NCBI GenBank assembly: GCA_963729625.1
Contig: CAVSOU010000008.1
Coordinates: 512,001-576,000, forward strand
Origin: an uncultured bacterium
GTDB lineage: Bacteria; Chloroflexota; UBA5177; JANWHV01
DNA: 64,000 nucleotides
Direction: 5' to 3'
Shown here: positions 43,891-61,024 of the stretch, in pieces
Layout: every line of letters begins with the position of its first letter
Position numbering within the stretch: position 1 is the stretch's first letter
The notes under the pieces: generated by a model
Told to the model about the DNA's origin: nothing
Seen by the model: only the letters and a program-made list of their open reading frames with translations
Databases searched by the model: none
Translations under genes and position numbers: made by a program

Positions 43891-45261
43891 TCAGATCTCA
43901 CGCGCATCAAACGCCGCGGCTGGCCGGTACTTGGCCAGCGGAAGTGTGACTGTGAAGAGCGCGCCGCCGCCAGGCGCGTTCGCGGCGGTGATGCGGCCAT
44001 TGTGCGCGTCAACAATCCAGCGCGCGATGGCCAGCCCGAGGCCCGAGCCTTTCCCTGTCCGTGCCTTGTCGGCACGGTAGAAGCGCTCGAATATGCGCGG
44101 CAGATCTGCCGGATCGATGCCCGGCCCGGTATCCCGCACGACCAGCCGCGCGCTGTTGCCATGCGGCTCGGCGCTGACCGTGACCGTGCCGCCTTCCGAG
44201 GTGTATTTGAGCGCGTTGTCGAGGAGAATGAGCAGGAGCTGCCGCAAGCGGCCTTCGTCGCCCACGAGTTGGAGGCCCGGCACACTGCCGCCGGAGAGGG
44301 TGATGTTGCGATCCTCCGCCAGCATGTCGACCGCCTCGACGCTATCATTCACCAGCTTGGTGAAATCAACCGGCCGGCGTTCGACGGCGATAGCGCCGCT
44401 ATCGGCGCGCGCCAGCAGCGACAGGCTTTCTACCAGGCGGGTCAGGTGATTGTTCTGATCGAGAGTCTGCTCGAGCGCGCGTTGCTGCTCGGCAATCGAC
44501 TCCTCGGCGAGGCCGAGCTCGGCAGCAGTGCGCATGATCGCCAGCGGCGTGCGTAGCTCGTGCGCGGCATCGGCCACGAAATCGCGCTGGCGCTTCAGCG
44601 AGATCTGGATCGGCCGCAGCGCGCGCCGAGCCAGCAGTGCGCTGATACCGGCTGCTGCCACGATGCCCAGCACACTGACGGCGAGCATGTCGCGCAGCAG
44701 CGAGCCGAGACTGTTGAGGTAGTTCTTCTCTGAAATAGCTACTTCCTCCACGCCGAGCACCGCCTGTGTGCCGTCTCGAAGCTGGACACTGATCGGCACG
44801 GTCTCCACGAGATAGGGCTGTTGCCCATTACTGACCTCGACGCAGCACTGAACACTGCCGGTATTGAAAGCCTGTTGGATAGAGGAATACGTGACGATCT
44901 GCTCGGAAGAGCTGGAGACCAGATTGCCGTTGCCGTCGACAACGGCATAGTACATATCGTCCTGGTTATCCTGGCTGTTGCAGTCCGGTTGGGTCGCGGC
45001 AGGTGGGCCGAACTGGCCCGTCAGTCCGAGCTCGACCTCGAGCTGGCGCACGCAGCGGGAAGGATTGGCTGCGCGGTAGCGCAGCGTGCTTTCCAGGGAT
45101 TGGTAGAGTTTCTGCTGCGTGGTGAAGTACACGAGCGTGCCGGATATGAGCAGCAAGGCAAAGATAAGCGCGGAGGTCAGAGCTGCAAGGCGCCAGCCCA
45201 CGCGCCGAACCGACACAGCGTCGGGATCTGCCACGGCGTTCTTTCGTCGAATCCAAAGCAT
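43891..45261 (-). CDS. Sensor histidine kinase
   Basis: Two TM helices, DAAHELRTPL, LLDNALKY, DTGPGI, FERFYR, GSGLGLAI. Confidence 0.95.
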   Translation of the reverse strand: MLWIRRKNAVADPDAVSVRRVGWRLAALTSALIFALLLISGTLVYFTTQQKLYQSLESTLRYRAANPSRCVRQLEVELGLTGQFGPPAATQPDCNSQDNQDDMYYAVVDGNGNLVSSSSEQIVTYSSIQQAFNTGSVQCCVEVSNGQQPYLVETVPISVQLRDGTQAVLGVEEVAISEKNYLNSLGSLLRDMLAVSVLGIVAAAGISALLARRALRPIQISLKRQRDFVADAAHELRTPLAIMRTAAELGLAEESIAEQQRALEQTLDQNNHLTRLVESLSLLARADSGAIAVERRPVDFTKLVNDSVEAVDMLAEDRNITLSGGSVPGLQLVGDEGRLRQLLLILLDNALKYTSEGGTVTVSAEPHGNSARLVVRDTGPGIDPADLPRIFERFYRADKARTGKGSGLGLAIARWIVDAHNGRITAANAPGGGALFTVTLPLAKYRPAAAFDAREI

Positions 45262-45357
45262 TGAACGCTCCTTCCTGCAAAGCCGGAACCCGTCGCCTGG
45301 GTGGGGGTCTGAGGCAGCCGCAGCAAGCTCCTATGCGCGCATGAGGGCGCTACTCAT

Positions 45358-46029
45358 TCAGGCCTTTATCTTGTATCCCACGCCACGAACCGTCTGAATC
45401 AACTGACGCTCATATCCTTCGTCCACCGCTTTGCGCAGGCGCCGTATGGTCGCGTCCACCACATTGGCAAACGAGCCGAAGCCGTAGTCCCACACGCGCT
45501 CCATAATCATTGTGCGGCTCAGGACCTGGCCGGGATGGCGCATGAGGTATTCCAGCAGTGCGAACTCTTTCGGCGAGAGCGGGATAAGGCTTCCGCCGCG
45601 GTAGACCTCGTGAGCCTGCCGGTCGAGCACGAGATCGCCAACTTCCAGACGATCGTCGTCCGCGCGCCGGCCATTGCGCCTGGTTATGGCGCGAAGACGC
45701 GCCAGGAGCTCTTCGAAGGCGAAAGGCTTCGTCAGGTAGTCGTCGGCGCCGGCATCAAATCCACGAAGCCGGTCGCGCAAGGCGTCACGCGCGGTCAGAA
45801 TCAGCACCGGGACCGTAGACTGGTCGGAGCGCAGCTGGCGCACGATCTCCAGCCCGTCGATGCCGGGCAGCATGACATCGACGATGAGCGCGTCATAGCT
45901 GCCGGTCTGCGCGCGCTCCAACCCGTCATTGCCGTCATACGCCACGTCGACGGTGTGGCGCTCTTGCGTCAGGCCCCGTCGCAAGAGATCGGCCAGCGAC
46001 TTATCGTCTTCTACAACTAAGGTGCGCAT
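45358..46029 (-). CDS. OmpR-family response regulator
   Basis: LVVEDD, DVMLPG, LTARD, DDYLTKPF, LSPKEF, IQTVRGVGY; GGAGG SD. Confidence 0.96.
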   Translation of the reverse strand: MRTLVVEDDKSLADLLRRGLTQERHTVDVAYDGNDGLERAQTGSYDALIVDVMLPGIDGLEIVRQLRSDQSTVPVLILTARDALRDRLRGFDAGADDYLTKPFAFEELLARLRAITRRNGRRADDDRLEVGDLVLDRQAHEVYRGGSLIPLSPKEFALLEYLMRHPGQVLSRTMIMERVWDYGFGSFANVVDATIRRLRKAVDEGYERQLIQTVRGVGYKIKA

Positions 46030-46088
46030 AGCATGAAATTCCTCCGGACATTTCTCTGGCGAGCATAGCAAACCAATATGATCGTTGC

Positions 46089-46159
46089 ATGACAATCTTG
46101 TCATCGAGCTGTCATAAATGGATCATGGTTGTGTCATAGAGGGGTCATGGGTTAGTCAT
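46089..46159. promoter_or_regulatory. Array of six 11-bp-phased GTCAT boxes plus one inverted copy
   Basis: GTCAT at 46100, 46111, (ATCAT) 46122, 46133, 46144, 46155; ATGAC at 46089. Confidence 0.85.
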
Positions 46160-46356
46160 CGAAAATAACTATGCTGGAAAGGTACCGATATACATGATGC
46201 ACGAGTGCCAACCGGCAGTTCGGCTGGTGGCATTCGACAGCATCCGGTGGGTTCAGCCACCGCTTGAAGCGAGCCTCGGCCCACGGCGTGTTCCTTACCC
46301 GTGAGCAGAGGCGCAGGCAACCTCAACTGAAAGGCTCAGGAGAAAGGGAAGTAATC

Positions 46357-47463
46357 ATGGCAAAGAGACTTACTACGCTCGCCGCGGCGACGCTGATCGT
46401 CGCGGGAGGCATCGGCGACCACATCCTTACGACTTCCACGTCCAATCAGCCCGCCGCGCTGGCGGCCGTGGCCGCGCAACAGGCTGCGGTGCAAGCCGCG
46501 CCGGCCGCTTCCACGTCGCTCGACGCCGCGACTGAACATGCCTACGCGGTTGCCAGCCCATCGGTTGTCTTTGTCAACAACGTCAATGTTGGCAGCGGCT
46601 CGGGCGTAATCTACGACAAGACCGGCGATATCGTCACCAATTACCACGTGGTTGCAAACGCCCAGACGATCACGGTTACGCTTTCCTCCGGCAAGACCTA
46701 CACCGGGCGCGTGGTCGGTAGCGATGTGAAGGATGACCTGGCGGTAATCCACATCGACGCCACGAACCTTCCTGCCGCGCACTTCGCCGGCGCGGGATCG
46801 TTCCGCGTGGCACAAATGGTCCTGGCAATCGGCAACCCGCTGGATCTTCAGCAGAGTGTGACATTCGGCCTGATCAGCGCGCTTGACCGCACGGTTTCGG
46901 AGTCCTCCAGCAGCGGCGCCTATCTGCCGGATGCCATTCAGACCTCTGCGCCGATTAACCCCGGCAATTCCGGTGGCGCGCTGGTCACGCTTGATGGAAC
47001 GGTCGTCGGCATTCCGACGCTTGAAGCCGTCGATCCTCAAAACAACAACGGTGGCGCGGCTCAGGGCATTGGGTTTGCCATCCCGAGCACACGAGTGACA
47101 ACCATTGCACATCAGATCATCGTCTATGGGCGTGTTGTTCACTCCGGACGCGCTTACCTCGGCGTGAGCACGACCGACAACAGCAGTGCGGGTGGTCTCT
47201 CAATCTTCGGCCAGCAACAGCAGCAGGGCAATACTCCCGGAGCGCTCGTGACCGATGTGGCCGCCGGCAGCCCAGCGGCGCAGGCCAGCCTGCAGCAGTA
47301 TGACGTGATCACGGCTGTGAACGGCAAGGCTATCGCCGGCAGCGACGATCTGCTCACCGCTCTCGCGCACGCCAAGCCGAGCCAGACAATCACCCTTACC
47401 GTCAACCGCAATGGACAGACCTCGGACCTCAAGGTGACACTCGGCGAGCTGACAGTTTCCTAA
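46357..47463 (+). CDS. htrA: HtrA/DegP-family serine protease with PDZ domain
   Basis: Signal/TM segment; TNYHV, DDLAV, IQTSAPINPGNSGG; C-terminal PDZ. Confidence 0.93.
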   Translation: MAKRLTTLAAATLIVAGGIGDHILTTSTSNQPAALAAVAAQQAAVQAAPAASTSLDAATEHAYAVASPSVVFVNNVNVGSGSGVIYDKTGDIVTNYHVVANAQTITVTLSSGKTYTGRVVGSDVKDDLAVIHIDATNLPAAHFAGAGSFRVAQMVLAIGNPLDLQQSVTFGLISALDRTVSESSSSGAYLPDAIQTSAPINPGNSGGALVTLDGTVVGIPTLEAVDPQNNNGGAAQGIGFAIPSTRVTTIAHQIIVYGRVVHSGRAYLGVSTTDNSSAGGLSIFGQQQQQGNTPGALVTDVAAGSPAAQASLQQYDVITAVNGKAIAGSDDLLTALAHAKPSQTITLTVNRNGQTSDLKVTLGELTVS

Positions 47464-47707: not shown

Positions 47708-50700
47708 TCACTGTGGATTGTCGTCGAGCGTCGAAGCTTCCAGGACCGTAAAAGCTAACGGAGCAAGGATCATCGCCTCTACCGTGCTCAAAGTCTTGAG
47801 CCCGCTGGACAGGGCCTTGGCGGTACTCACCACATCCTCGGCCGCCGAAACGCCGGCAATGGTGAGACCAAGGTCTGCCAGCTTGTTGCCCAGCACAAGA
47901 CTTGCGATGCCTATGGTGAAGTTGCTGTACGCATCGTTCCGGTAGTTCCCGTGCCTTGGTAACCCAGCCGTCCATTCGAGCGCAAGTGATTGGAAAACGA
48001 GGATCACTGAGACGGCCGGTAAGTTCAGACCGGTGGCCAGCAGCGTATCTCCCGCAGCGCTGGCTGTTATTCCTTTCGTGACTCCTGCGAGGTCGATCAG
48101 GCCGGTCAACAGCCCCGTAGAGACCTGGGAGCACAGGAGGTCTTCAAGACCTTGGGCCGAAGTGTTAGTAAACTTTGCCTTGCAGGCCGTCAGCTTGGTC
48201 AGGCTCTGCACCGCCCCCGGAACGTCCACCGTGCCATAGATAACGTCCACATCCTTGCTAACCGTATCGGTCTCGGCCCCGGCAGACTGTATTTTGGTAA
48301 TCGTGGAGCCTATGCTTAGCCCCTTCCCCAGCGCTGTCAGCGCTCCTCCAAGCCAGGTCGACGCGGTTGCGATTCGATCCACTACTTGCGCAACACTGAG
48401 GTCGGCCAGAGTGAAGTCCAAACCGCTGGGATCCACGAGACTTACCGGGTTATCCCGCGCATACAGATAGCGGTGCAAGGTTAATGGATCCTTGAGCGTG
48501 GGGTCCATTGGATCCTCGCTCAGGAAACGACCCTGCGTTGGGTCCATATAGCGCGCACGCAGATAGTACAGTCCCACTCCCGCGTCGAACTGCTGCCCGC
48601 CATAGAGAAAGGGGTTGGGCACCGTGCCGGTCGAGGCTAGCAGGTTGCCGAAAGCATCGTAACGGTAGCTGTTCTGCACCGTGCCCGCGCTGCCTGCCAG
48701 CAGCCGCGTATTCTGGTTGCCATCGTAGAGGTAGTAGGATAGTGCACCTGCGCCCTGGTCCATGCTGATGCGCTCGTTGCCGTAGACGTAGTCGACGGTC
48801 GGCCCGCCGCTCTGCGTGGTTTCCACTACCTGCGGCAGGCCGTCCAGCCCATTGGGGTCCACAAGGTAGGTGGTGATCGTTCCGCCCGTCGTGCTGGTGG
48901 TGCGATTGCCGTCGCCATCGTATGTGTAGCTGGTCGTGCTGCTACCGCTGCTCACGCTGAGCAGCTGGTTCTGGCTGTCGTAGCTGTAGCTGGTCGACAC
49001 GCTCCCGTTGGCACTGCTGAGCAGATTGCCGTCTGCATCGTAAGTTTCGGTGGTGGTGCCGCCTGGTCCGGTTTGGGATGTCATCTCGCCCCTGCTGTTG
49101 TAACGCGAGGTGGTGGTGCCAGTGTCGTCGACTCGCGTCAGACGATTGCCTGCCAGATCGTACGTGTAGGCGGTATTCGCCAGCGTCGTGCCACCGCGCG
49201 ACTGCTGCTCGTGGGTCAGCCGCCCATCGGCATCGTAGCTGTACGTGTAGGTAGCTAACGCGCCGGTTTGGTCGGTCTCTTGCACGCTGGTGCGCTGGCC
49301 CGCGGCATCGATGGTGTAGAGGTCCTGCCAGATCTGGACATTGCCCGGCCCGGTGGTAGTCAGGCTGACCAGCCTGTTCAGCTCGTCGTAGCTGTAGACG
49401 GTCGTCACCCCATTCGGCAGGGTGCGCTGGGCGAGATTGCCGCGGCTGTCATAGCCATAAGCGGTTGTGTGGTGCGCGGGGTCGACGACCTGGATCAGCC
49501 TGCCGGCGGCATCGTACTGGTAGCTCGTGGTGCCGGCTAGAGTGGTGAGGCTCGTGCGGCGACCGGCGCCGTCATACGTGTACTGCAGGGTGCTGCCGCC
49601 GGGCTCGGTGATCGTGGTAATGCGGCCCATCGTGTCGATGGCGTAGCTGGTGGTCTGGATGCTGCCGCCCTGCTGGTTGCCCATCGTCTTGCGCTGCCCG
49701 CCGGAGTAGTAGGTGTAGGTGACGGTGTGGTCCGGATAGGCGATCGTGCTCACCCGGTTCATGGTGTCGTAGCTATAGGTCGTTACCTGGCCGCGCGCGT
49801 TGGTGGTGGTGGCCAGATTGCCCGCCGCGTCGTAGGTGTAGCTCTTGGCCGCGCCATCGGGATACGTGGTGCCGGTCAGGTTATTGTTCAGGTCGTAGGA
49901 ATACTTCGTGACGTTGCCGACGTCGTCATTCTGGTAATTGAGGTTGCCGTTGGCATCGTAGCCATAGATTGCACCCTGATATAGTGGGTTCGTATTCGTG
50001 ATCGGGTCCCGGACCCGGGACAGGTTGCCGCTTGGGTCGTAGGCGTAGCTGGTGAGGCGACCAAGAGGATCCGTCACGCTGGCCAGCTGATTGACATTGG
50101 AATAGGTTTCGGCGGTGGTCACGGTCGTGGGCACGCCGCCGATCGTGACGGCCGTGCTGGTCCCGGTACGGTGATGGCCGGCATCGTAAGTGTAGGTGGT
50201 GACGTGGCCTGCCGGATCGGTCACCGTGGTGCGGTCGCCGGTCACCGGGTCATAGCCGTAGGAGATGCTGTTGCCTAGCGGGTCCGTTACCTTGGTCAGC
50301 CGGTTCGCGCTGTCGTAGCTGTACGTCGTGCTGTCCCCTGCGCCATCGGTGCTGCTGATCTTGCGGCCTGCTGCATCGTAGCCGACGCTCGTCTTGCTGC
50401 CGTCCGGGTAGTCGGTTTCAACCAGCCGGTTGTCGGCGTCATAGATGTACTGTGTGGTCCGGCCGTTCTGATCGATGCTGGCGACGAGATTCCCATTGGC
50501 GTCGTAGGCCTCGCCGGCGGTCGATCCGTCCGGGTAGACGGTCTGCACCAACTGCCCGAGCGCATCGTAGGAATAGCTGCTGGTGTTGCCGCGGGGGTCA
50601 GTAGTTGTCAGCAGCCGGCCCGCCGCGTCATACGTATTCGTGGTAACGCCGCCCTGCGGGTCGGTGGTCGTCAGCATGTTACCTGCCGCATCGTACGTGT

Positions 50701-53700
50701 AGGATGTGACGGCTGTCTTGCCTCCACCAACCAGCGTTGTGCTGGCGGTAACGCGACCCAGTGGATCGCGGGTGTAGGTCGTGCCTGCGTTATTTGGCCC
50801 GCTGTAGGTGTTGACGCCGGTTGCCACGTAGTTGAGAAACTGCGATGAGCCGTTAGGGTACGTCACGCCGCTTGGCACGGAATTACCCACGTAGGAGAAG
50901 TTCGTCGTGTTACCCATCGCGTCTTGCAGCGTAGCCGGGCTGCCGAAGCTGGTATACGTCAGCGTGCTCTGTGTCTTGCCGTTGAAGCTCTGGCTCAGCA
51001 GATGGTGCTGCGCGTCGTACTGATAGCTGGTGGTGTTGCCCAGCGGATCGGCGTCCTGCGTCAGGTCGCCGTTCGTGTTGTAGGCCATGCTCGTCGTATG
51101 ACCGAGCGGGTCGGTCGCCGTGAGCGGCTTGTGCGTGGTCGGGTCGTAGGTATAGCTGGTCGTGTTCCCCAGTGGATCGGTGGACTGGGTGACATCGCCG
51201 AAGTCGTCGAAGATGTTGGTAGTGTGGTTTCCGCGCGCATCGGTGATCACCTGCTGGTGCGTGTTCAGGTTCACGTTGAATGTGGTCGTCTTGCCGTTGA
51301 TGTCGGTGATACTCGTGAGCTGACCCTGAGCGTTGTAGAGTGCGGTGGCCGGGCTCCTGCCCGTTGGGTCGGTCTCGCCGAGTAGGTCGTGGTTGCTGTC
51401 GTAGTGGTAGGTGGTCACGCCGCCGTTCTCGTCGGTCACCGTGGCCAGGTCACCATTGGAATCGTAGCCATACAGGATCGTCTTGCCCGCCGGATCGGTG
51501 ATCTTGGTGATGCGGCCCTGGCTGTCGCGGCTGAACTGCACGGCAGGGCCGCGCGTGCTTGTCACGCCGCTGGATGCGTAGGTGAGCTTGTCGTTGCCGC
51601 CCGGCGTATCCACTTCGGTCAGGCCATCGGCCACGTTGGCGGTGATCTTGAACACGGTGCCGTCGGTGGTGGTCACTGCCAGCTTGGCTGGCGCATAGGG
51701 AGAGAAATTGTTGAAGAGGTCGAACCAGCACTGAGGAGCCGAAGTATCGACACCGGAAGCCAGCCCCGTGCTGGCGCCGTTGATGTCGGCCAGCGTCGCG
51801 CCTGTCGTCGGGTCGGGACTCCAGGCCGGCGCGAAGAGCTCGAAGCCGTCGATGTTCTGGCCCGTGTCGCCGGGATTGAAGTTGAAAGTCATGGGCTGAT
51901 TGGAGATCGGAAGCTGCACAGTGATGTTGCCCAGGCATGTGTCTTCGGTGGCGCTACCCGAGGCCGTTGCCTCCGTCCAGTTCACCCCGAAGTCGCCCTG
52001 GGTGCGCAGGAAGTTATCGAAGGAGCGATTGACCACGATGGGGATGCCGGTCACCGAGACCGAGAGATCGGGCACCGTGAACTGCAGGTTGCCGACCTTG
52101 AGCCGGCCCAGCACGCTGATAGTCGGGCCAGTGAAGGTGACGGTCTTGCCGTCGATGGCGCTGACCTGAAGTCGCAGCGTGTACTGGCCATCACGGAGGC
52201 TCGTGGTATCGAGTGTGCCAAGCGTGCCGTTGCTCACCGTGCTCGTGCCCGTGACGAAGGTGGTGAAGACGCTGCTGCCCAGGGATGCATAGGCGAGGGT
52301 AAAGCCCGCAAGCGTACCGCCGCTTACCCCGGCCGAGCCGATGATCGGCAGTTTGCCGCTGACCTGCTGTGCACTTGTCGGCGAGGTGATGGAAGCGGCG
52401 AGGTGCTCGTTGGGGTTCAAGGTCGCGCTGGGCGTAGCAGTGAGAGTGGGCGCAGCGGTGGCCGTTGGCGTGCTGGTTGGGGTACGGGTCCCGGTGGGAC
52501 TACTGGTCGGCGTGGATGTGTTTGCAGCGGTGCCGCTCGCGGTAGGCGTAGCGCTGGGGCTCAACGTGCCGGTAGGGGTATCGGAGGGCGTGAGCGTGCT
52601 GGTCGGCGTCCCAGTTGGCGTGACGCTCGGCGTATTTGTGCCGGTGCTGGTGGGTGTGGACGTGAGCGTGATAGTCGGGATCGGCGTGCTCGTCGGCACG
52701 AAGCTGGGCGCCACGTCGGGGCCGCTGAAGGCAATGGAGCTTGCGGTGAAGAACGACCCGATACTCGTGGAGATGAAGACCGCGCCGGTTTGGCCGGGTG
52801 CCGGCAGCGGCGCCCCAGTCGTCCCATCAAAGCGGTCGACCTTGGTCGAGGCAAATGTGTCGACGTACAGGTTCCCATCGGGCCCGAATGCCAGGCTTTC
52901 CGCCTGAACGACGCTGCTCGTATCGACAAAGATGGCGCCGCTCTTGCCCGGAGCAGGCAGCGGATCGCCGGTCGTGCCGCTGTAGCGCAGCACCGCAGAG
53001 AGGTCAAAATCGCTCACGTAGAGATTGCCGTCCAATCCTACGGCGATCCCGCCCGTGGCCAGCAATCCACCGCTGCCGCGCGGCACGAACACGGCTCCGC
53101 TTTGCCCGGCCGCCGGCAGCGGCGCACCGGTCGTGCCATCGTAACGACGAATCACGTTGTCGCCGAAATCGGTGATGTAGAGATTGTCATCGCGCCCAAA
53201 GACGAGATCGTAGGGGCTGGCAAGGCCACCGCTGCCGGCCGGAACGAACGTGGCGCCGCTCTGGCCGGGCGCGGGCAGCGGCACGCCGGTGCTACCCTTG
53301 AAGCGGTATACGGCGCCCCCCGACGGATCGAGGAGGAAGAGGTTGCCGTCCGGGCCGAACACGATGTGCCCCGGATTCACGCTCAGGGCGCTGCTCCCGG
53401 CCGCCACGAAGGTCGAGCCGTACTGGCCGGGCGCGGGCAGCGGGCTCAGCGTGGCGCCGTCGAAGCGGAGCACCGGATCGCCCGAGCCGCCGGCGTTGCT
53501 TAGGTAGAGGTTGCCGTCCGGTCCCACGATGGCGTCGAGCGGGATGCCGAGGTCCACGGCGCCGGTCGAGAGCAGCGTGTCGATGGGATTGCCGGCAACC
53601 CCGTCGTAACGCCGCACGCTCCCGTGTGAGAGGGTATCGGCATTCACTTCGATAAGTGCGTCCCATGGCACGGTCACCGGGTTCGAGGTGACGGCACCGC

Positions 53701-56254
53701 CGCCGATCGTGGCCCCGGCCTGTACGGTATCCGTGCCGCCTATGCCGCGGTTTACGTAGCTGAAGGTCGCCACGCCGGCGCTATTTGTCGTGGCGCTCAG
53801 CTGTTGGGCGTTAGGCCCGGTGATGGTGAGCGTGACCGGCGTGTTGGGCACAAGGCTACCGGTAGAATCGGCGGCGGTCACGATGAACTTCTGCTGGCTG
53901 CCGCGGTGCAGACCCACGAAGAGCGGGCTGATGCTGAGCGTGCCGAAGAGCTGCGTCACCCATTGCACGGTACCGGTGTTGGAGGTGATGGTCGGAATGG
54001 CTCCCGCTTGCTGCACGCTCGCTACCACCGTATCCAGGCCGGTCAGGGTGCTAGTGTAGCTGAAAGTCGCGTTGCCCAGGTCGTCGGTGATGGCCTGCCC
54101 CATCACGCCGGCGTTCGGCCCGCTGATCGCGTTGAAGTTCACGGTTACTCCAACCTGCGGCGAGGCGCCGACCACGTCGGCCACATTCGCCGTGAAGGAC
54201 TCAGGCTTCTGTACCTGCTGGCTGGCGCTCAACGGCTGGAGCGTCACCGTGGTGCCCTGCGCGTTCACGCCCGTGGTGCCCATGGGGTGCCACGCGAACA
54301 CGCAATCGGTATTGCCGCCGCCATCGTCGACGATGTGTCCGGTGTCGAACAGACTGGTTTTGCTGCCGTCGCCCAGGCTGACTGTGACGACGGGCGGATA
54401 GTAGAACGGCGGCAGTGCGCTGGTACAGCTGGGGTTGGGCAAGCTCGGCACGTCGTCGCTGGTATCGAAGTCGCCGCCGTTGACGGAAGCGAGGATCACC
54501 GTCTTCCCCGCGGGAATCGTCAACGGGAGCTGCGACGGGATATTCCCGGTCGGATGCAGCCAGGGATCGAGGACCGTCAAGCCGTACGTCGGGTTGGGGA
54601 ATGCGACGGAGACGTCGTTCAGCACGGCAGTATTCGGCGTGTGGTTGTCAATGCGAATGGCTCCGGTGTCGCAATCCACGCCGCTGGTGCAGTTGCCCAC
54701 GAAGATCACGTCCGGCGCACCGGCCCAGGGTCGCGGGAAGTTCAGACCATCTGGGGAACCGTCAGCATACGCTACGGAGACGACCAGTCCCCCGGGTAAG
54801 ACATACGGCGGGGTGGGAGTCGCGTCGGCGGTGGCGGTGTCCGTGGCGGTGTCCGTGGCGGTGCTGGTGTCCGTGTCCGTGGCGGCGGCGGTGCTGGTCG
54901 CGGTTGCCGTGTCCGTGCCGGTTTGGCTCGGCGTTGGCGTATCTGTGACGGCCGTGGTACTGGTTGCCGCCGGCGTCTCGGTGTCTGTGCCGGTGCTCGT
55001 TGCTGTCGAGGTATCCGTAGTGACACTGGTGGTGGTTGAGGCTGGGGTGCTGGTCGTGGTCGGCGTAGCCGTGCCGGTGTCCGTTGGAGATGTGGTAGCG
55101 GTGTCGCTGCCGGTCTGGGTTGGCGTTGGCGTGGTGGTGAGAGCGGAAGTCGTGGTAGCGGTCTCGCTGGCCGTCTGGCTTGGCTCCGGCGTATTAGTAT
55201 CCGTGCCGGTGTGCGCAGGCGTCGTGGTAGCGGTTTCGCTGCCAGTCTGGCTCGGCTCCGGTGTATCGGTGTCTGTGCTGGTGGCGGCGATGCGCGTGGG
55301 AGTCGCCGTTGCAGTGTCCGTACCCGTCGGGCTCGACGTTGGCGTGTTGTTAGGGGCTCCGGTGCTGGTCGCCGTTGGCGTAAGCGTTTGCGTCGGCGCG
55401 TGCGTGACTGTGTTCGTCGGGGTCAGCGATGGCCTGGTGGTTGGCGGTAGCGAAGGTGTGACTGTGCTGGTTGGCGCCGGGGCAGAGGTACCAGTCGGAG
55501 TACTGGTCCATGTATTGGTACGAGAAGGTGTGGCTGTGCCGGTTGACGTCGCATAGGACGTAGCGGTCGGCGTGATGGTGGGGATCGGCGGGAGTGTCGG
55601 CGAGCTCGTGGGGGCCTGGGCACAGACAGGTCCGCCGACAGTATAGAGGATCAGGGCATCCCCATCGCCATCGGCATGGTCATCCCAGTCGCCATTGCTG
55701 TCAGTCTTCACCGTTATGTCGGTCCCAACTGTGGTCGCAGCAAACCGCGACGTGAACGTGACGGTGACCGTCATCGGCAGCCATGTATCGCGCACGTTTC
55801 CTATCCTGATAAGCGTCGGATAGACGGTCGTCGTCAGGTTGACATCGCCGGTTCCTCTTGCCTTGACGTGGGCAATCTGGCTGGCAGGCCAGCAGCCTGA
55901 CAGCAGGACAAAGGCGATTTGCTCTTGCGCTGTGGGTCGCGAGCCGTCGACGCGCCAGGTGAACGTATCCGAAGTCCCGGGCGTAGTAGGCGCTAGCAGC
56001 CTAGCCGTATAGCCCCGGCCAGCAGATCCGGCGTCGTCAATGGCGGCAATAGGCTGATTGGGGGTTCCGGCGGTCGAGCTATCCTCCTCGGTGGCCGTAG
56101 GGGTTGGGCTCTGCCGCGCGTTGACCTGGGCGTGCTGCGCCGCTGCAGCCGGTATGGCAGGCCAGGTCGGAGCTGTGGCGAGAAGCGTGATGAGCACGAG
56201 TGCGGCGCGCAGATAGCTCGCGCGTGCGAAGACCTGTTTCCCCTGACCTCCCAT
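47708..56254 (-). CDS. Giant secreted RHS/YD-repeat protein (signal peptide, Thr/Pro linkers, Ig-like domains, NHL propeller, YD shell, RHS core, C-terminal cargo)
   Basis: Many TYTYD/YD repeats; NPFLYGGQQFDAGVGLYYLRARY...GRFLSEDP...NPVSLVDPSG core; GPDGNLYV NHL repeats; start reset to MGGQGK (AAAGGGGG SD). Confidence 0.93.
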   Translation of the reverse strand: MGGQGKQVFARASYLRAALVLITLLATAPTWPAIPAAAAQHAQVNARQSPTPTATEEDSSTAGTPNQPIAAIDDAGSAGRGYTARLLAPTTPGTSDTFTWRVDGSRPTAQEQIAFVLLSGCWPASQIAHVKARGTGDVNLTTTVYPTLIRIGNVRDTWLPMTVTVTFTSRFAATTVGTDITVKTDSNGDWDDHADGDGDALILYTVGGPVCAQAPTSSPTLPPIPTITPTATSYATSTGTATPSRTNTWTSTPTGTSAPAPTSTVTPSLPPTTRPSLTPTNTVTHAPTQTLTPTATSTGAPNNTPTSSPTGTDTATATPTRIAATSTDTDTPEPSQTGSETATTTPAHTGTDTNTPEPSQTASETATTTSALTTTPTPTQTGSDTATTSPTDTGTATPTTTSTPASTTTSVTTDTSTATSTGTDTETPAATSTTAVTDTPTPSQTGTDTATATSTAAATDTDTSTATDTATDTATADATPTPPYVLPGGLVVSVAYADGSPDGLNFPRPWAGAPDVIFVGNCTSGVDCDTGAIRIDNHTPNTAVLNDVSVAFPNPTYGLTVLDPWLHPTGNIPSQLPLTIPAGKTVILASVNGGDFDTSDDVPSLPNPSCTSALPPFYYPPVVTVSLGDGSKTSLFDTGHIVDDGGGNTDCVFAWHPMGTTGVNAQGTTVTLQPLSASQQVQKPESFTANVADVVGASPQVGVTVNFNAISGPNAGVMGQAITDDLGNATFSYTSTLTGLDTVVASVQQAGAIPTITSNTGTVQWVTQLFGTLSISPLFVGLHRGSQQKFIVTAADSTGSLVPNTPVTLTITGPNAQQLSATTNSAGVATFSYVNRGIGGTDTVQAGATIGGGAVTSNPVTVPWDALIEVNADTLSHGSVRRYDGVAGNPIDTLLSTGAVDLGIPLDAIVGPDGNLYLSNAGGSGDPVLRFDGATLSPLPAPGQYGSTFVAAGSSALSVNPGHIVFGPDGNLFLLDPSGGAVYRFKGSTGVPLPAPGQSGATFVPAGSGGLASPYDLVFGRDDNLYITDFGDNVIRRYDGTTGAPLPAAGQSGAVFVPRGSGGLLATGGIAVGLDGNLYVSDFDLSAVLRYSGTTGDPLPAPGKSGAIFVDTSSVVQAESLAFGPDGNLYVDTFASTKVDRFDGTTGAPLPAPGQTGAVFISTSIGSFFTASSIAFSGPDVAPSFVPTSTPIPTITLTSTPTSTGTNTPSVTPTGTPTSTLTPSDTPTGTLSPSATPTASGTAANTSTPTSSPTGTRTPTSTPTATAAPTLTATPSATLNPNEHLAASITSPTSAQQVSGKLPIIGSAGVSGGTLAGFTLAYASLGSSVFTTFVTGTSTVSNGTLGTLDTTSLRDGQYTLRLQVSAIDGKTVTFTGPTISVLGRLKVGNLQFTVPDLSVSVTGIPIVVNRSFDNFLRTQGDFGVNWTEATASGSATEDTCLGNITVQLPISNQPMTFNFNPGDTGQNIDGFELFAPAWSPDPTTGATLADINGASTGLASGVDTSAPQCWFDLFNNFSPYAPAKLAVTTTDGTVFKITANVADGLTEVDTPGGNDKLTYASSGVTSTRGPAVQFSRDSQGRITKITDPAGKTILYGYDSNGDLATVTDENGGVTTYHYDSNHDLLGETDPTGRSPATALYNAQGQLTSITDINGKTTTFNVNLNTHQQVITDARGNHTTNIFDDFGDVTQSTDPLGNTTSYTYDPTTHKPLTATDPLGHTTSMAYNTNGDLTQDADPLGNTTSYQYDAQHHLLSQSFNGKTQSTLTYTSFGSPATLQDAMGNTTNFSYVGNSVPSGVTYPNGSSQFLNYVATGVNTYSGPNNAGTTYTRDPLGRVTASTTLVGGGKTAVTSYTYDAAGNMLTTTDPQGGVTTNTYDAAGRLLTTTDPRGNTSSYSYDALGQLVQTVYPDGSTAGEAYDANGNLVASIDQNGRTTQYIYDADNRLVETDYPDGSKTSVGYDAAGRKISSTDGAGDSTTYSYDSANRLTKVTDPLGNSISYGYDPVTGDRTTVTDPAGHVTTYTYDAGHHRTGTSTAVTIGGVPTTVTTAETYSNVNQLASVTDPLGRLTSYAYDPSGNLSRVRDPITNTNPLYQGAIYGYDANGNLNYQNDDVGNVTKYSYDLNNNLTGTTYPDGAAKSYTYDAAGNLATTTNARGQVTTYSYDTMNRVSTIAYPDHTVTYTYYSGGQRKTMGNQQGGSIQTTSYAIDTMGRITTITEPGGSTLQYTYDGAGRRTSLTTLAGTTSYQYDAAGRLIQVVDPAHHTTAYGYDSRGNLAQRTLPNGVTTVYSYDELNRLVSLTTTGPGNVQIWQDLYTIDAAGQRTSVQETDQTGALATYTYSYDADGRLTHEQQSRGGTTLANTAYTYDLAGNRLTRVDDTGTTTSRYNSRGEMTSQTGPGGTTTETYDADGNLLSSANGSVSTSYSYDSQNQLLSVSSGSSTTSYTYDGDGNRTTSTTGGTITTYLVDPNGLDGLPQVVETTQSGGPTVDYVYGNERISMDQGAGALSYYLYDGNQNTRLLAGSAGTVQNSYRYDAFGNLLASTGTVPNPFLYGGQQFDAGVGLYYLRARYMDPTQGRFLSEDPMDPTLKDPLTLHRYLYARDNPVSLVDPSGLDFTLADLSVAQVVDRIATASTWLGGALTALGKGLSIGSTITKIQSAGAETDTVSKDVDVIYGTVDVPGAVQSLTKLTACKAKFTNTSAQGLEDLLCSQVSTGLLTGLIDLAGVTKGITASAAGDTLLATGLNLPAVSVILVFQSLALEWTAGLPRHGNYRNDAYSNFTIGIASLVLGNKLADLGLTIAGVSAAEDVVSTAKALSSGLKTLSTVEAMILAPLAFTVLEASTLDDNPQ
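54800..55620 (-). repeat. Thr/Pro-rich low-complexity linker with a 72-nt internal duplication
   Basis: TDTDTPEPSQTGSETATTT / TDTNTPEPSQTASETATTT copies begin at 55221 and 55149. Confidence 0.8.
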
Positions 56255-56423
56255 GTCGCTCGTTCCCCCTTTGCCGCTCCCAGCTGCTGGCCGTGTGCCT
56301 GCCGTTGCTGGCAAAGCCGGTCCGGTCCGGTCACCTGTGAAGCCTGGGCCCCGCACCATGAGGACAACGCTACTCCGGCCATGTTCGCCGACTGTTGCAG
56401 TTTTGCGTTCGCCCGCCTCTGGC

Positions 56424-56456
56424 GCGCTTGTGTCCGGGCCTGCTTCCTTGTGTAGC
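56424..56456 (-). promoter_or_regulatory. Bipartite GCTACACAAG...GGACACAAG motif upstream of the RHS gene
   Basis: ACACAAG cores 20 bp apart; the same arrangement recurs at 59926-59954. Confidence 0.55.
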
Positions 56457-56578
56457 CGCGGCCCGATCTCGCACGGTCTCCCCCGTATGGATGTGCTCGC
56501 TCAGCCCAAGATCACGCTGATGCGGCTGTAAGCCCGTGGTCTCGAGGATGTTGTTGGGTCCTGTGGCGCCGGCAGTAA

Positions 56579-59500
56579 CTACGTCGATTCGGAGGCGTGT
56601 AGCGCCAGCACGTCGGTGATGATGCCGTTCAGAGACATCGTTTGGCCTTCCGCCCACCTGACGGCGAACATGTCATCAGCGCCGAGCAACTGTCGCACCC
56701 AAGCGACGTCGGCCGCGAATACCTTTTGCGAACTCGGCGGGAGCGGATGGCCGACGGCAGTGTACTCCGCCTCGACGGCACCAAGCAGATTCGCCGCCAG
56801 CGCCGGATTCCCTTCGCCTGCGATCATTAGTGCCCAGTTTTGTAGCACATCGGCCAGCGCCACCCGTTCGCCAAGGGTCCGGTATCCGTGCATGCTGAGG
56901 CGGAAGTGGGCGATCGCCTCCCGATAGTGTTCCTGCTCGCAGGCTATGCGACCCAACTCGTTGTGGACACCTGCACTCCCCGAGATATCGGCCTGTTCAT
57001 CGAACTGTGGTAGCACCGAATCGAGCAACGTCGCGGCACGCGGCAGGTCACCGGCCAGGCGATAGCAGACTGCCTGGTTGAAGAGCGTATAGCGGATCGG
57101 ACAGAACGCGTGGCGGTCATCCAGCGTCCGCCGCTGCCCCAGGCATTCCTCGTTGAGCGTGATGGCACGGGTGTAGTCGCCCTCCTCCTGAGCGACGAGG
57201 GCCAGGTTGTGCAGCGCTCTCACGATATTCGGCGTATCACTCTCGCGCCGGAATATCGCCAACGACTCTTCATAGAGTGCTGCTGCCTGCACCCGGTCTC
57301 CCTGAAACCTGGCGACGTTGCCCAGTCCGTTGAGGGCGTTAGCCACTTCGCCGCTATTGTGCGTGGCACGGCCAAGGGCGAGGCACTCTTCATGCACCGC
57401 ACGGGCCAGTTCGTGATCACCCTGGTTGATCGCGAAGTGGCCTAATCCTCGTAAGGCTCGCAGCCGCGCGACCGGAGCGCCGCCTTCGCGAGAAAGCACG
57501 GCCGAGAGCCAGGTGCGTCCCTCGATCCAATGCCCTCGCGCCGCCCAGAACCACCAGAGTGCTCCTGCCAGGCGGATACCCGCATGCACATCCTCGTCCT
57601 GCCGCACACACCACTCGAGCGCAGCCCGCAGATTGTCGTGCTCAATTTCCATGCGCTCGACCCAGGCGGGCTGAGGGGGACCGTGCGAAGCCGGCCACGC
57701 ACGTTCCGCAAACGCCAGGCACCAGCGCAGATGCCGATCCCGCGCCTGGGCCTCCTCTCCGTGCTCTCGAAGATGCTGGACTGCATAGTGGCGCACTGTC
57801 TCGAGCAGCCGGTAGCGGCACGACGTCTCTGGGTCGTCCTCGATCTGCACCAGGGACTTGCTCGCCAGCCTGGCAAGCAGGTCAGATACGCCGGCTTCCT
57901 CCAACGGGCTGTCCGAACAGACGGCTTCCACGGCGTCGAGCGTCCAACCACCTGCAAATACTGATAGTGTGCGGAACAGTGCCTGTTCGTCGTCGCTGAG
58001 CAGGTCGTAGCTCCAATCCATCACCTCACGGAGCGTCTGATGGCGAGGCAAGGCCGCCCGATTCCCGACCGTGAGCAATCGGAACCGATCGTGCAGCCGG
58101 GCGGCAAGGTCGCCGGGAGAGAGCTGTCCGAGACGAGCAGCCGCCAATTCTATGGCCAGGGGAATTCCGTCGAGTTGGGTGCAGATCTCCACGATGGCCC
58201 GCCAATTGTCGAGCGTCAAGGCAAAGTCAGGCCGCACCAGCCGCGCGCGCTCGACGAGGAGACGCGTCGCGGCGTGCCGGCCCACCTCCTGCAGCGAGAG
58301 CTCGCCTCGCCGGGCCCGTGGAGGGACGGCGAGAGACGGCAACCGCCACACCGTCTCGCCCAGCACACCTAGCGGTTCCCGGCTGGTGGCCAAGATCTGC
58401 GTGCTAGGGCACTCCCGTAAGATAGAGGCCACGAACGCTACGCTAGCGGCTATCACATGCTCGCAGTTGTCGAGGATCAGCAGCATCCGGCCCGACCGCA
58501 GAATGGAGATCAGCGTCGGCAGCGAAGACCGGTCCGTACCTGGATGCAAGCCGAGTGCGCCGGCCGTCTGGCAGGCGATAGGCTCAAGATCAACCTCCCT
58601 TTCAGGCGCCAGCACGGCCAGCTCCACCAACCACAGGCCATCGGGATACACACTCCGCAATTCATGGCCAAGCTCGATCGCCAGGCGCGTCTTTCCGCAG
58701 CCGCCCGCACCGGTCACGGTGAGCAGGCGGCACGCTTGGCCGGCCGGAGATGCCGCGCCACCGGAGAGTAGCCGGGCCAGCGTCGCCAGCTCTTGCTCGC
58801 GTCCGAGAAAGCTGGTCAGCGGCGTGGGCAAGTTGGAATGCTGCGCGGAGGCAGCGTGGCGGCTTGCCACCGCCGCCTGATAGTGCTCCTCGGTTTCGCT
58901 GTCCGGCGCCATGTCGAGATCGCGCCGCAGTGCGTCGGCCACCTGCTTGTAGGTACGGGCAGCCTCGGGAGCCCGCCCGGCCGCGACTTGTACGCGCATC
59001 AGGGATCGCGCCGCCGGCTCATTGCACGCATCGATGGCGAGGACTGCCCGCAGGCAGCGCGCCGCTTCACCCAGCACCCCATCCCGTTCGCGCAGATCGG
59101 CCAGGCGAAGCAAGAGCGCGAGGTACTGCTGGCGTAGCTCCTCCCTGCGCATGACCGCCCACTCATCGTACACGTCGTCCGGCAAATACTCTCCACCATA
59201 GAGCGCCAGTGCGGCCCGGCACGCAACAGCATCCCCGCCAGCCAAAGCGATGGCAGCAGCGCGCTCGAAGGCACGTGCATCCAGCCAGTCCTCAGGCGGC
59301 GTGTTCTCAGGTGCGGGGGCGAGCACCAGCAGGCCGCCCTCAAGGCGCACATACCCGAGCTCTCCCGTGCGCTGTCCCAATACCTTGCGGAGACGGTGAA
59401 CGGTCGTTCGCAGGTATGTGGCGGCCATGGCAGGCTCCTCCTCGGGCCTGAGCAACTCGGCCAGTTGTTCGCGGTGCCGCCGGTGCCGAGGCGCGCTCAG

Positions 59501-59866
59501 CAGGCATTTGAACAGCATTGTTGCCTGGCGGTGACGCCAGGTCTCCGCCGGCAAAGGTGTGCTACCACGCCAAACAGCAAAACCACCGAGCGTTCGCACC
59601 CGAAGCGGCGCGTACGTCTGGGCCGCCACCATCGCTTCAGGCAACTCGAGCGGCTCCGGCGTCGCCGCCGCCTCGGGTGGCAGGTGCTTGCCGATATAAC
59701 GCGAGCGCCGTCGCCCACCCTCGCGCCAGTAGGCATACCAGTAGGGACCGTGACCTGGAGAACCCAACACGCAGGTTGGGCACGCGAGCTTGTTGCAGCG
59801 TCGAAACTGCTGACTATACGTGACGCGTGTCGCCGCCGCCAACTGACCGGTAGCCATGCCGCGCAC
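56579..59866 (-). CDS. AfsR/SARP-like regulator: DUF6788-like Cys/His domain, wHTH, BTAD, NB-ARC/STAND ATPase, TPRs
   Basis: RRCNKLACPTC...HGPYWYAYW; LRVRTLGGF; ALALYGGEYL; TGAGGCGKTRLA Walker A; LLILDNCEH; LDGIPLAIELAAAR; TPR repeats. Confidence 0.93.
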   Translation of the reverse strand: MRGMATGQLAAATRVTYSQQFRRCNKLACPTCVLGSPGHGPYWYAYWREGGRRRSRYIGKHLPPEAAATPEPLELPEAMVAAQTYAPLRVRTLGGFAVWRGSTPLPAETWRHRQATMLFKCLLSAPRHRRHREQLAELLRPEEEPAMAATYLRTTVHRLRKVLGQRTGELGYVRLEGGLLVLAPAPENTPPEDWLDARAFERAAAIALAGGDAVACRAALALYGGEYLPDDVYDEWAVMRREELRQQYLALLLRLADLRERDGVLGEAARCLRAVLAIDACNEPAARSLMRVQVAAGRAPEAARTYKQVADALRRDLDMAPDSETEEHYQAAVASRHAASAQHSNLPTPLTSFLGREQELATLARLLSGGAASPAGQACRLLTVTGAGGCGKTRLAIELGHELRSVYPDGLWLVELAVLAPEREVDLEPIACQTAGALGLHPGTDRSSLPTLISILRSGRMLLILDNCEHVIAASVAFVASILRECPSTQILATSREPLGVLGETVWRLPSLAVPPRARRGELSLQEVGRHAATRLLVERARLVRPDFALTLDNWRAIVEICTQLDGIPLAIELAAARLGQLSPGDLAARLHDRFRLLTVGNRAALPRHQTLREVMDWSYDLLSDDEQALFRTLSVFAGGWTLDAVEAVCSDSPLEEAGVSDLLARLASKSLVQIEDDPETSCRYRLLETVRHYAVQHLREHGEEAQARDRHLRWCLAFAERAWPASHGPPQPAWVERMEIEHDNLRAALEWCVRQDEDVHAGIRLAGALWWFWAARGHWIEGRTWLSAVLSREGGAPVARLRALRGLGHFAINQGDHELARAVHEECLALGRATHNSGEVANALNGLGNVARFQGDRVQAAALYEESLAIFRRESDTPNIVRALHNLALVAQEEGDYTRAITLNEECLGQRRTLDDRHAFCPIRYTLFNQAVCYRLAGDLPRAATLLDSVLPQFDEQADISGSAGVHNELGRIACEQEHYREAIAHFRLSMHGYRTLGERVALADVLQNWALMIAGEGNPALAANLLGAVEAEYTAVGHPLPPSSQKVFAADVAWVRQLLGADDMFAVRWAEGQTMSLNGIITDVLALHASEST

Positions 59867-59925
59867 CGTTCTCAGGGAACTCCGCCGTCCCTCTACCTAA
59901 TCTCTAAGGTGCCTGAGGTGCTCCT

Positions 59926-60010
59926 GCTACACAAGCGCGTTGGGTGGACACAAGATGACCAGAGGATGGCAGATCGTGGGCTGTAACGGATACGCACGAC
60001 CGCTTGTGTA
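59926..60010. promoter_or_regulatory. ACACAAG motif cluster in the divergent regulator/small-protein promoter
   Basis: GCTACACAAGCGC 59926, GGACACAAG 59946, inverted TACACAAGCG 60010-60001. Confidence 0.55.
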
Positions 60011-60081
60011 AGCTGTGCACATAAGCTACGCCAGCGGCTTCAGAGGCATACGGCAAACGGCCCGAGGGAAGATCGAAATCG

Positions 60082-60309
60082 ATGACGAGGTACGATGCCT
60101 ACGTTCTGCGGTTCTGGCAAAGCACGGGAAAGGATGGGCCACAGTGGAAGGGTAGGATAGAACACCTTGGGCGCGGCGAAAGCGTGCAGTTTGACAACCT
60201 GGAGGCCTTACTGCATCACATACGCACAATCGCCGGCGTAGAGCGTGGTCTGGGCAGCATGGACCGCGGTCCAGGACACGGAGAAGCCGGAAAGAGCATG
60301 GCGCCCTAG
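60082..60309 (+). CDS. Small hypothetical protein (75 aa), YxLRxW...W.G.IE..G....F..LE.L type
   Basis: GAGGG SD; MTRYDAYVLRFWQ...QWKGRIEHLGRGESVQFDNLEALLHHI; divergent from the STAND regulator. Confidence 0.75.
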   Translation: MTRYDAYVLRFWQSTGKDGPQWKGRIEHLGRGESVQFDNLEALLHHIRTIAGVERGLGSMDRGPGHGEAGKSMAP

Positions 60310-60577
60310 CCGTGCAGCGTCCGGGCGACATTGTCGGCAGTGTGATTCGGGAGATCGTCCTCGTGAAGACCAATCCTAGCTACGGGCCTGATGCCTGGCA
60401 TCCGGGCACGGGCACTGTCATCGGGACGGTCTGCACCAGCTAGATTCTGGCTGCGCGCCGGCCCCATCAGCACAAGTCACTCCCAATGTCTTCGCAGCAG
60501 CGACCAGCAAGACCTCCGGGACATCGTCGCCGGAGGTCTTGCCCGTGCCGAAACAGCAGGAAGGGCCGCGCCCAGGA

Positions 60578-61024
60578 CTACCGCGCCTTCTTCCCCTGGC
60601 CATGCACGCCGTTGGCCCGCTGAAAGGCGAGGTCGTCATTCAGCCGGTAGTCGACGAGCGCTTTGATCAGCATCTGATTGATCGAACCCCGGCAGTTAAA
60701 CGCCTTGGTTCGCAGCCACTCGTACATCTCATCAGTCAGGTGAACGTTGAATTTCACGCTTCCGGCCGCGGCGCCGGTCGGCTTGAGCGCGAGAGGCGTC
60801 GTGACATCGGGCGACATCTCACGCAGGGCCCGGATTGCCGCGAGCACCATGCTGTTCATGCTGCGGCGATCGACGAATGCGCGATAGCGCAGCCACTCGT
60901 ACTGTGCTGCCGGCAGGCGACACTGCATGAATCGCGTTCCGTCCATGGCCGCCGGTGCTGCAACAACCTTTTGCCTATCTATCATCTGCAACACGTGCGA
61001 CGCCTCCTTGGTCATCCTCTTCAT
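60578..61024 (-). CDS. Tandem ribbon-helix-helix (Arc-like) DNA-binding protein
   Basis: Internal duplication: MQCRLPAAQYEWLRYRAF..RRSMNSMVLAAI / FNVHLTDEMYEWLRTKAF..RGSINQMLIKAL. Confidence 0.72.
   Translation of the reverse strand: MKRMTKEASHVLQMIDRQKVVAAPAAMDGTRFMQCRLPAAQYEWLRYRAFVDRRSMNSMVLAAIRALREMSPDVTTPLALKPTGAAAGSVKFNVHLTDEMYEWLRTKAFNCRGSINQMLIKALVDYRLNDDLAFQRANGVHGQGKKAR

Follow-up and report, generated by a model that had tools for sequence, protein, structure and literature searches.

In the AfsR/AfsS system, the closest described parallel to the locus reported here, which comes from Streptomyces, the small gene afsS next to the regulator gene has a promoter with two 11-bp repeats to which AfsR binds, one SARP protomer to each repeat, at an afs box that lies at -19 to -40 and overlaps the -35 element; the NOD and TPR regions of AfsR restrain its SARP domain until ATP is bound, and the sensor ligand is not known (PMC10936776). 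AfsS, which according to a second study has no DNA-binding domain, binds AfsR (Kd 4.7 uM, pull-down, co-immunoprecipitation) and raises the occupancy of AfsR at its target promoters (PMC10832544). In a 64,000-nt stretch of Chloroflexota DNA (the window; home genome G000, 5,411,702 bases), three neighboring genes, encoding an AfsR-like regulator of the STAND type, a 75-aa protein and a giant RHS protein, may be wired along similar lines. Our preferred reading, to which we give a probability of roughly 0.55, is that they form an AfsR/AfsS-type regulatory cassette with an RHS exoprotein as output, in which the STAND regulator activates the promoters of both other genes. The genes and their two predicted promoters are as follows:

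47708-56359, minus strand: RHS gene, 2883 aa counted from the first ATG
56579-59866, minus strand: regulator gene, 1095 aa, directly upstream of the RHS gene on the same strand
60082-60309, plus strand: small gene, 75 aa, divergent from the regulator gene
56427-56453 (minus strand) and 59929-59954 (plus strand): ACACAAG-N12/13-ACACAAG doublets, in the sense orientation to the RHS gene and the small gene, respectively
56367-56455, minus strand: P_RHS, with CTACACAAG-N11-GGACACAAG, CCAGAGG, TGCAAC (56394-56399) and the TAnnnT box TAGCGT (56367-56372)
59927-60014, plus strand: P_small, with CTACACAAG-N10-GGACACAAG, CCAGAGG, TGTAAC (59982-59987) and the TAnnnT box TAAGCT (60009-60014)

A preliminary description of this DNA had given the coordinates of the three open reading frames (ORFs), and these hold; the 75-aa product also contains the residues quoted for it. 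The locus resembles the AfsR/AfsS system in the predicted architecture of its regulator (winged helix-turn-helix, wHTH, plus BTAD, then a NOD ATPase and TPR), in having a small gene beside the regulator with direct repeats in its promoter, and in the lack of a recognizable DNA-binding domain in the small protein. It differs in that its regulator carries an extra DUF6788-like zinc-ribbon N-terminus and is not an AfsR orthologue, in the divergent arrangement of the gene pair, and in belonging to the phylum Chloroflexota rather than the Actinomycetota. Further, AfsS acts via short sequence repeats, whereas the small protein here is predicted to be a folded beta-beta-beta-alpha domain from a separate, unannotated family; the outputs appear to be exported proteins (RHS here, beta-propellers and beta-helices elsewhere) rather than antibiotic clusters; and the promoter repeats are spaced 19-20 nt apart and probably lie upstream of the -35 element.

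The evidence that carries the preferred reading begins with the promoters. The preliminary description had noticed a motif common to the upstream regions, and we found it to be the ACACAAG doublet, which stands ahead of both the RHS gene and the small gene. The window holds 2 matches to it, against 0 in 100 shuffles, and a search of the whole genome (both strands, spacers 8-16) returned those 2 matches only; the 249 single ACACAAG heptamers in the genome would, by our arithmetic, yield about 0.05 doublets by chance. The similarity of P_RHS and P_small spans about 85 nt: in both, 4 nt separate GGACACAAG from CCAGAGG, and a GTA that opens the TAnnnT hexamer follows exactly 20 nt after TG(T/C)AAC (21 nt from TGNAAC to the TAnnnT box). 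Since the similarity runs beyond the doublet, what stands ahead of the RHS gene is a complete promoter copy of the small-gene type, and it is this copy that ties the genes together into the three-gene system first proposed for the locus. P_small itself is on the strand opposite to the regulator gene, 63-88 nt ahead of that gene's start. In two related genomes the small-gene promoters can be aligned with the arrangement seen in P_RHS and P_small, and the TGNAAC-20 nt-GTA pattern is conserved in 4/4 aligned promoters. A third copy of ACACAAG, inverted, lies at 60003-60009, between P_small and the small gene. Among sequencing runs, no RNA run was listed as containing 55800-60700, and one DNA run contained a quarter of the words of this stretch.

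Could the three genes be unrelated neighbors, with a short motif repeated by accident? A single ACACAAG is indeed not rare (7 in the window vs 4.2 expected), but the 2 doublets found, both at this locus, compare with the 0.05 expected genome-wide, and the linkage described below recurs in 50/62 loci across many families of the phylum, so that we regard chance adjacency as extremely improbable.

The second line of evidence is the company that the small gene keeps elsewhere. No Pfam or NCBIfam model matches the 75-aa protein and a word-based search gave three close relatives only, while a seven-sequence profile recovered 1743 cluster representatives at E <= 1e-3 (103 at <= 1e-10). The family is present in 20/41 genomes of relatives and in 55/301 genomes sampled across Chloroflexota, tallies in which the unpublished genomes G018 and G206 are counted; G000 itself encodes four clear members and one weaker member. 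A first set of 43 neighborhoods was collected, with genes called greedily by length and GC content at third codon positions, and in 42 of these the small gene was recovered, the ORF rule having missed it in L049. When the nearest neighbor of at least 150 aa on each side was scanned with Pfam (77 proteins), 18 loci had a BTAD-bearing STAND gene, 6 further loci had another STAND or TPR gene (nSTAND1-WD40, HTH_31-AAA_16-TPR, or TPR fragments at contig ends) and one had an RHS gene. Because greedy calling misses some genes, a wHTH+BTAD profile built from 19 regulators was then run on all ORFs, and it placed a SARP ORF within 5 kb of the small gene in 30/42 loci, 25 of them within 800 nt; two of the 30 are weak partial matches on short contigs (L044, L047). 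At the missed locus, by its coordinates, a divergent BTAD-STAND gene lies about 0.8 kb away. In a held-out set of 20 loci from other families of the phylum, the figures were 20/20 within 5 kb and 17 within 800 nt.

By way of background, there are 11 BTAD matches in G000 (5.41 Mb) and 17 in G001 (about 8 Mb), and by our calculation DNA no more than 5 kb from a BTAD gene makes up about 2.7% of the genome. Among whole genomes, the family occurs in 20/30 that are BTAD-positive and in 0/11 that are BTAD-negative. Related genomes are not independent and these ratios therefore overstate the statistical weight of the linkage, but the effect remains large. A family profile combined with a table of neighborhoods had been set beforehand as a test of the idea that the family recurs beside BTAD-ATPases, and the enrichment beside BTAD-STAND genes is what it gave.

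The companion idea, that the family also recurs beside exoproteins, agrees with what lies downstream. Counting as signal-like any protein with a 15-residue Kyte-Doolittle mean of at least 1.8 within its first 75 residues, the next gene on the same strand as the small gene qualifies in 26/33 loci, against 80/288 other called genes; in the held-out set the downstream ORF passes in 9/13. Downstream genes that Pfam could name encode LVIVD, SBBP, Kelch, beta-helix/NosD, RCC1, DUF642 and plastocyanin-like proteins. As read from these sequences, then, the usual unit would consist of a promoter, the small gene and a gene for an exported protein, with the regulator gene alongside. The window shows a variant, in which the predicted exported protein (RHS) is encoded downstream of the regulator and has a second promoter copy ahead of it, and the small gene is monocistronic, followed by a convergent gene for a 148-aa Arc-like protein and, after that, by one for glutamate dehydrogenase. 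Between the small gene and the convergent 148-aa gene, 200 nt past the stop of the former, sits a perfect hairpin of 11 bp (AAGACCTCCGG ... CCGGAGGTCTT, 60509-60540) with no T-run.

The same downstream counts would also fit a small protein that serves the cargo as a cytoplasmic helper of the exported protein, be it a chaperone, an export pilot or an immunity-like protector; at one paralogous locus of the home genome (L009) the small domain directly follows an RHS gene, the usual place of an immunity gene. We consider this quite improbable. The cargoes have unrelated folds (LVIVD, SBBP, Kelch, beta-helix, RCC1, DUF642, RHS and many with no family), which a single helper would be unlikely to serve, the small gene has no cargo behind it in the window or in L043, and the linkage to SARP genes is tighter than that to any one type of cargo.

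A third line of evidence comes from the small-gene promoters of other clades. SARP promoters, as set out in the AfsR study, have two repeats one helical turn apart that abut the -10 box, with no -35 box, and the repeats are generally 11 or 22 bp apart (PMC10936776). In several clades of the small-gene family, two repeats 11 nt apart likewise abut a -10-like box (the GGTAACGG and CACGTTTTCCA pairs below are examples), and the repeat word varies with the clade of the regulator. CACAAG doublets with 13-25 nt spacing occur in the window and in L041, L043, L045, L047, L055, L056, L057 and L061; GTGCAAG occurs twice at 11 nt, followed by TATGAT, in L010 and L042; TGCACAAAC twice at 21-22 nt in L058 and L078; GGTAACGG twice at 11 nt, with a TATGGT-type box about 10 nt on, in L070, L071 and L075 (and as a variant in L077); CACGTTTTCCA twice, then TATAGT, in L062; and CAGAGACG twice, then TGCTATACT, in L067 and L072. 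Exact direct repeats of at least 7 nt, at a spacing of 10-12 or 19-23 nt, lie upstream of 17/41 small genes vs 30/166 other genes whose intergenic space is 90 nt or more (Mann-Whitney p = 2e-4).

The fetched loci contain 11 CACAAG doublets, all 11 on the strand of the small gene and nine of them no more than 163 nt from its start; the doublet of L051 heads a three-gene unit that ends in the small gene, and that of L008 occupies the interval separating a DUF6788-SARP gene from a divergent TIR-nSTAND1-WD40 gene, whose unit ends in a small-gene paralogue. Doublet-type promoters tend to accompany regulators that bear DUF6788. Across G000 there are 11 doublets of the CACAAG hexamer, three of them at these loci; another, at G000:C8:311625 near a further BTAD-STAND gene, is antisense and inside a coding start, and we treated it as chance.

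Several features of these promoters and loci weigh against the preferred reading, and they are best considered together with the rival that some of them favor. If the -10 box is where we guess it to be, the ACACAAG repeats would fall near -70 and -90. Their position is thus not equivalent to that of the afs box (-19 to -40), and the repeats could be the site of some other factor. The TG(T/C/A)AAC element resembles the -35 boxes of extracytoplasmic function (ECF) sigma factors. SARP genes were not found within 5 kb in 12/42 loci of the first set, contig-end cases included, and some of the SARP-less loci carry other STAND types (HTH_31-AAA_16-TPR, or TPR+DUF1670); L057 and L051 have CACAAG doublets ahead of their small genes and no SARP gene in the DNA examined. 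Finally, in the closest relative, L041, whose regulator is 66% identical, the sequence beyond the regulator gene has no relationship to the RHS region and the small gene is followed by a gene for a 186-aa protein with a signal peptide; as no RHS gene follows the regulator there, the link to RHS is specific to G000.

These observations raise the alternative that the shared module is read by some other factor, either an ECF-type sigma with TG(T/C/A)AAC as its -35 element or the small protein itself as an autoregulator, the STAND regulator being then a neighbor or a second input. The fixed 20 nt between TGNAAC and GTA in all four aligned promoters fits such a factor, as do the doublets of L057 and L051 and the fact that the doublet of L008 precedes a TIR-nSTAND1-WD40 gene whose product has no DNA-binding domain. 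Against it, L008 also has a divergent DUF6788-SARP gene right at the doublet, the repeat word co-varies with the SARP clade, and no ECF sigma gene was noticed among the window ORFs scanned; as for autoregulation, residue counts put the ordered region of the small protein close to neutral, and the protein has no DNA-binding fold match (best Z 4.5). On balance we hold this alternative to be unlikely, if the most serious of those considered. In the window's clade, the TGNAAC element occupies the place where an afs-type box would be expected.

The regulator itself appears from its sequence to be an AfsR-like large SARP of 1095 aa, with the following parts:

N-terminus: DUF6788-like zinc ribbon
aa ~85-330: SARP domain (wHTH + BTAD)
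aa 386-393: Walker A motif (GAGGCGKT) of the NOD ATPase, with Walker B around D466
aa ~800-1060: TPR

All of these domains had been assigned in the preliminary description, and two of them score above their Pfam cut-offs: BTAD (PF03704, aa 196-330, 49.1 bits vs a cut-off of 22.1) and TPR (TPR_12, 68.1 bits vs 30.1). The others are weaker than was implied and fall under their Pfam cut-offs, which counts against the preferred reading: 18.9 bits (E 1.7e-3, cut-off 26.2) for the OmpR-type wHTH Trans_reg_C, 24 bits for AAA_16/AAA_22, and 20.1 bits (cut-off 27.2) for DUF6788 (PF20586). The wHTH region ahead of BTAD is conserved over 19 aligned regulators; in the same 19 sequences G386, G389, G391 and K392 are invariant and D466 nearly so, and NB-ARC scores above its cut-off in the related regulators of L054 and L074. 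The DUF6788 N-terminus is found in 11/12 related regulators (E 3.9e-4 to 2.4e-9), in six of them above the cut-off (27.3-37.7 bits), and in 0/8 regulators of other clades. The AfsR model NF053617 gives a partial match (9e-27) of 93.4 bits vs an equivalog cut-off of 1430, and we rejected AfsR orthology on that score.

Among other regulators, the MalT-type STAND activators are likewise signal-gated proteins that combine a NOD with sensor repeats, and TPR_MalT matches occur in relatives of our regulator; they differ in that the regulator here has an N-terminal SARP module rather than a C-terminal LuxR-type HTH, and its locus has no metabolite pathway. NLR-like NB-ARC/TPR proteins with adjacent small partners have been described in filamentous bacteria, Chloroflexi among them, in a preprint (bioRxiv 10.1101/2020.01.06.895854), and a TIR-nSTAND1-WD40 gene precedes one of the small-gene paralogues. 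The regulator and the small protein might by this token form an NLR-type defense or cell-death pair, the small protein being a STAND-triggered effector or adaptor as in Bell/BASS or antiviral STAND systems, but this seems very improbable to us. The Bell domain is presented in that preprint as a helical domain of about 100 residues (bioRxiv 10.1101/2020.01.06.895854), unlike the 55-residue beta-beta-beta-alpha domain predicted here; PADLOC matches the regulator to a generic TPR model only, and gives nothing for the other two proteins; and the regulator bears a transcription-activator domain. A Bell/BASS amyloid pair was also sought directly and rejected, as no motif is common to the C-terminus of the small protein and the N-terminus of the regulator; BLASTP between the two proteins gave matches of 5-8 residues at E 2.9-15.

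The best 150 of the 1743 representatives of the small-protein family range from 59 to 198 aa in length. A Pfam scan of 107 members at E <= 1 gave no meaningful match, only noise recurring (DUF2517 in 5), and a search of longer proteins for fused forms gave one 213-aa match, which is weak evidence that the family stands alone, without fusions. An AlphaFold2 model made from 107 sequences has a mean pLDDT of 81.8 (>90 over aa 1-50), with strands at 7-16, 19-28 and 34-37 and helices at 40-51 and 53-57; the protein is thus modeled as a beta-beta-beta-alpha fold over aa 7-57 with a disordered tail. Foldseek against the PDB gave no match at E <= 1e-3, and in a wide VIA-align comparison the best Z of 4.5 (COMM domain) and the dsRBD-like rows at about 4.0 were within noise. 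We considered and rejected a relationship to the DUF6788 N-terminus of the regulator (hhalign probability 1.5%), and a BLASTP match of aa 6-44 to aa 718-750 of the regulator (E 0.013) was judged spurious, as it would pair predicted beta structure with a presumed helical region. A co-fold of aa 1-62 with regulator aa 190-1095 scored 0.01; it was run without controls and counts neither way.

The RHS protein, put at about 2850 aa in the preliminary description, has 2883 aa from the first ATG or 2848 aa from M36. The latter start (ATG at 56254) is the likely one, giving a protein with a predicted Sec-type signal peptide: the protein collection entry for this product has 2848 aa, a purine-rich stretch lies ahead of M36, and the N-terminus that follows is that of a typical signal peptide, with its hydrophobic peak at aa 43-61. 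The RHS_repeat match to Pfam/NCBIfam is strong (1.2e-133). Its parts run in the order of PT-rich linkers (aa ~250-520 and ~1210-1320), Big_1 Ig-like domains, a weak NHL-like region and the RHS shell, and the C-terminal end is laid out thus:

48419-48661, minus strand: RHS-associated core (aa 2567-2647, TIGR03696/Rhs_assc_core), ending in the self-cleavage motif DPSGL at aa 2643
47711-48418, minus strand: C-terminal cargo, 236 aa after DPSGL

The cargo has no Pfam match at E 0.1 and no similar C-terminus among other large proteins (1585-5046 aa), and its single-sequence AlphaFold2 model (pLDDT 38) is unusable. Of its residues, 66% are L, A, T, G, S or V, and one segment is strongly hydrophobic (aa ~2771-2794), a composition which might point to a membrane-active peptide. 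There is no room for an adjoining immunity gene, because a convergent HtrA-like gene ends only 245 nt after the RHS stop, and we found no credible ORF within that gap; given this absence, the RHS protein may be a weapon or an adhesin, both being allowed. It shares with the RHS/YD-repeat polymorphic toxins the RHS repeats, a core with a DPxGL cleavage motif and a variable C-terminal cargo, and differs from them in that its cargo belongs to no recognizable toxin family, its locus has no immunity gene, its N-terminus carries a Sec signal peptide, Ig-like and NHL-like domains and PT-rich linkers, and its predicted promoter is a dedicated one of the STAND type.

Taken together, these features make it quite likely that the three genes form one regulatory unit, and the odds also lean, a little less strongly, toward the adjacent regulator as the activator at P_small and P_RHS. 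By analogy with AfsR, the regulator would be an ATP-dependent, signal-gated activator in which the signal frees the SARP domain; the freed domain would then bind the repeat elements of both promoters and recruit RNA polymerase, so that the 75-aa gene and the RHS gene are transcribed. The RHS protein would be exported via its Sec signal peptide, cleavage at DPSGL within the shell would separate its last 236 aa from the rest, and the 75-aa protein would be the conserved first target of such regulators across Chloroflexota. By analogy with AfsS, which binds AfsR and increases its occupancy of promoters, the 75-aa protein would most likely act in feedback on its own regulator, and this feedback could be of either sign. 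We infer the STAND protein as the binding factor, the positions of the transcription starts, the export of RHS and the contact between the small protein and the STAND protein; that the small protein does bind the regulator is a proposal to which we would give somewhat less than even odds. More doubtful still, and offered tentatively, is the wider idea that the small protein represents an unrecognized and structurally new class of STAND co-factor which, with the SARP-NOD-TPR sensor, makes up a portable switch that Chloroflexota place ahead of varied exported proteins, the RHS protein of the window being one of these outputs.

If these proposals are correct, the locus would commit the cell, through an NLR-like switch latched by feedback, to the deployment of surface weapons or adhesins, and it would be the first AfsR/AfsS-type circuit outside the Actinomycetota and the first whose output is an exoprotein rather than a metabolite cluster. 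Should the small protein bind the regulator, the logic of AfsR/AfsS would be a general bacterial design and not a Streptomyces peculiarity. To our knowledge, large SARP/STAND regulators are abundant outside Streptomyces and their targets there are almost wholly uncharacterized; our literature searches gave no description of this module and no paper on DUF6788. The locus and the 62 related loci offer a testable picture of a sensor-activator and small-protein pair with repeat-bearing promoters and exported outputs, in which an orphan family of 1743 cluster representatives gains a genomic role, and the two-promoter regulon, unique in its genome, is well suited to biochemistry and suggests NLR-like gating of a giant RHS exoprotein.

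Several further observations concern relatives of the small gene. L008 (G000:C10:978000-997999, about 4686-10414) is a second cassette in the home genome: a gene for a 370-aa DUF6788-SARP protein with no NOD or TPR stands divergent to the gene for a 1528-aa TIR-nSTAND1-WD40 protein, with a CACAAG-N15-ACACAAG doublet between them, and the STAND gene is followed by the small-family paralogue (52% identical) and a gene for a PrsW-like membrane protease. At L009 (G000:C11:871000-890999, 7753-10396), where no SARP gene was found within the 20 kb examined, a 692-aa RHS/YD-shell ORF is directly followed by an ORF with a small-family domain as its core, where an immunity gene would be expected, and a FecR + beta-helix protein (1058 aa) is encoded 2 kb on. 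L057 (G001:C12:283600-303599, 9948-13901), again with no SARP gene within the 20 kb examined, has its small gene and CACAAG doublet followed by a gene for a 1218-aa protein with a signal-like N-terminus and no Pfam match.

In L096, L097, L098, L100 and L103, all from one family of the phylum, the small gene and the SARP-STAND gene converge, and the former adjoins the 3' end of the latter, with called gaps of 1-74 nt; elsewhere the arrangement is divergent or tandem. In L066, L067, L068, L069, L072 and L076 (genomes G034 and G022), a TGCTATACT-type -10 box precedes the small gene and is immediately followed by a hairpin and T-run that resemble a leader terminator; the STAND-like protein encoded upstream ends in a DUF1670 HTH-like domain and has no SARP start.

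On the far side of the RHS gene, the HtrA/DegP-like protease gene that converges on its stop (Trypsin_2 + PDZ) belongs to the region 43891-47463, and beyond it lie genes for an OmpR-type response regulator and a histidine kinase, a pair on the minus strand; the protease and the response regulator/kinase genes could be a separate envelope-stress unit.

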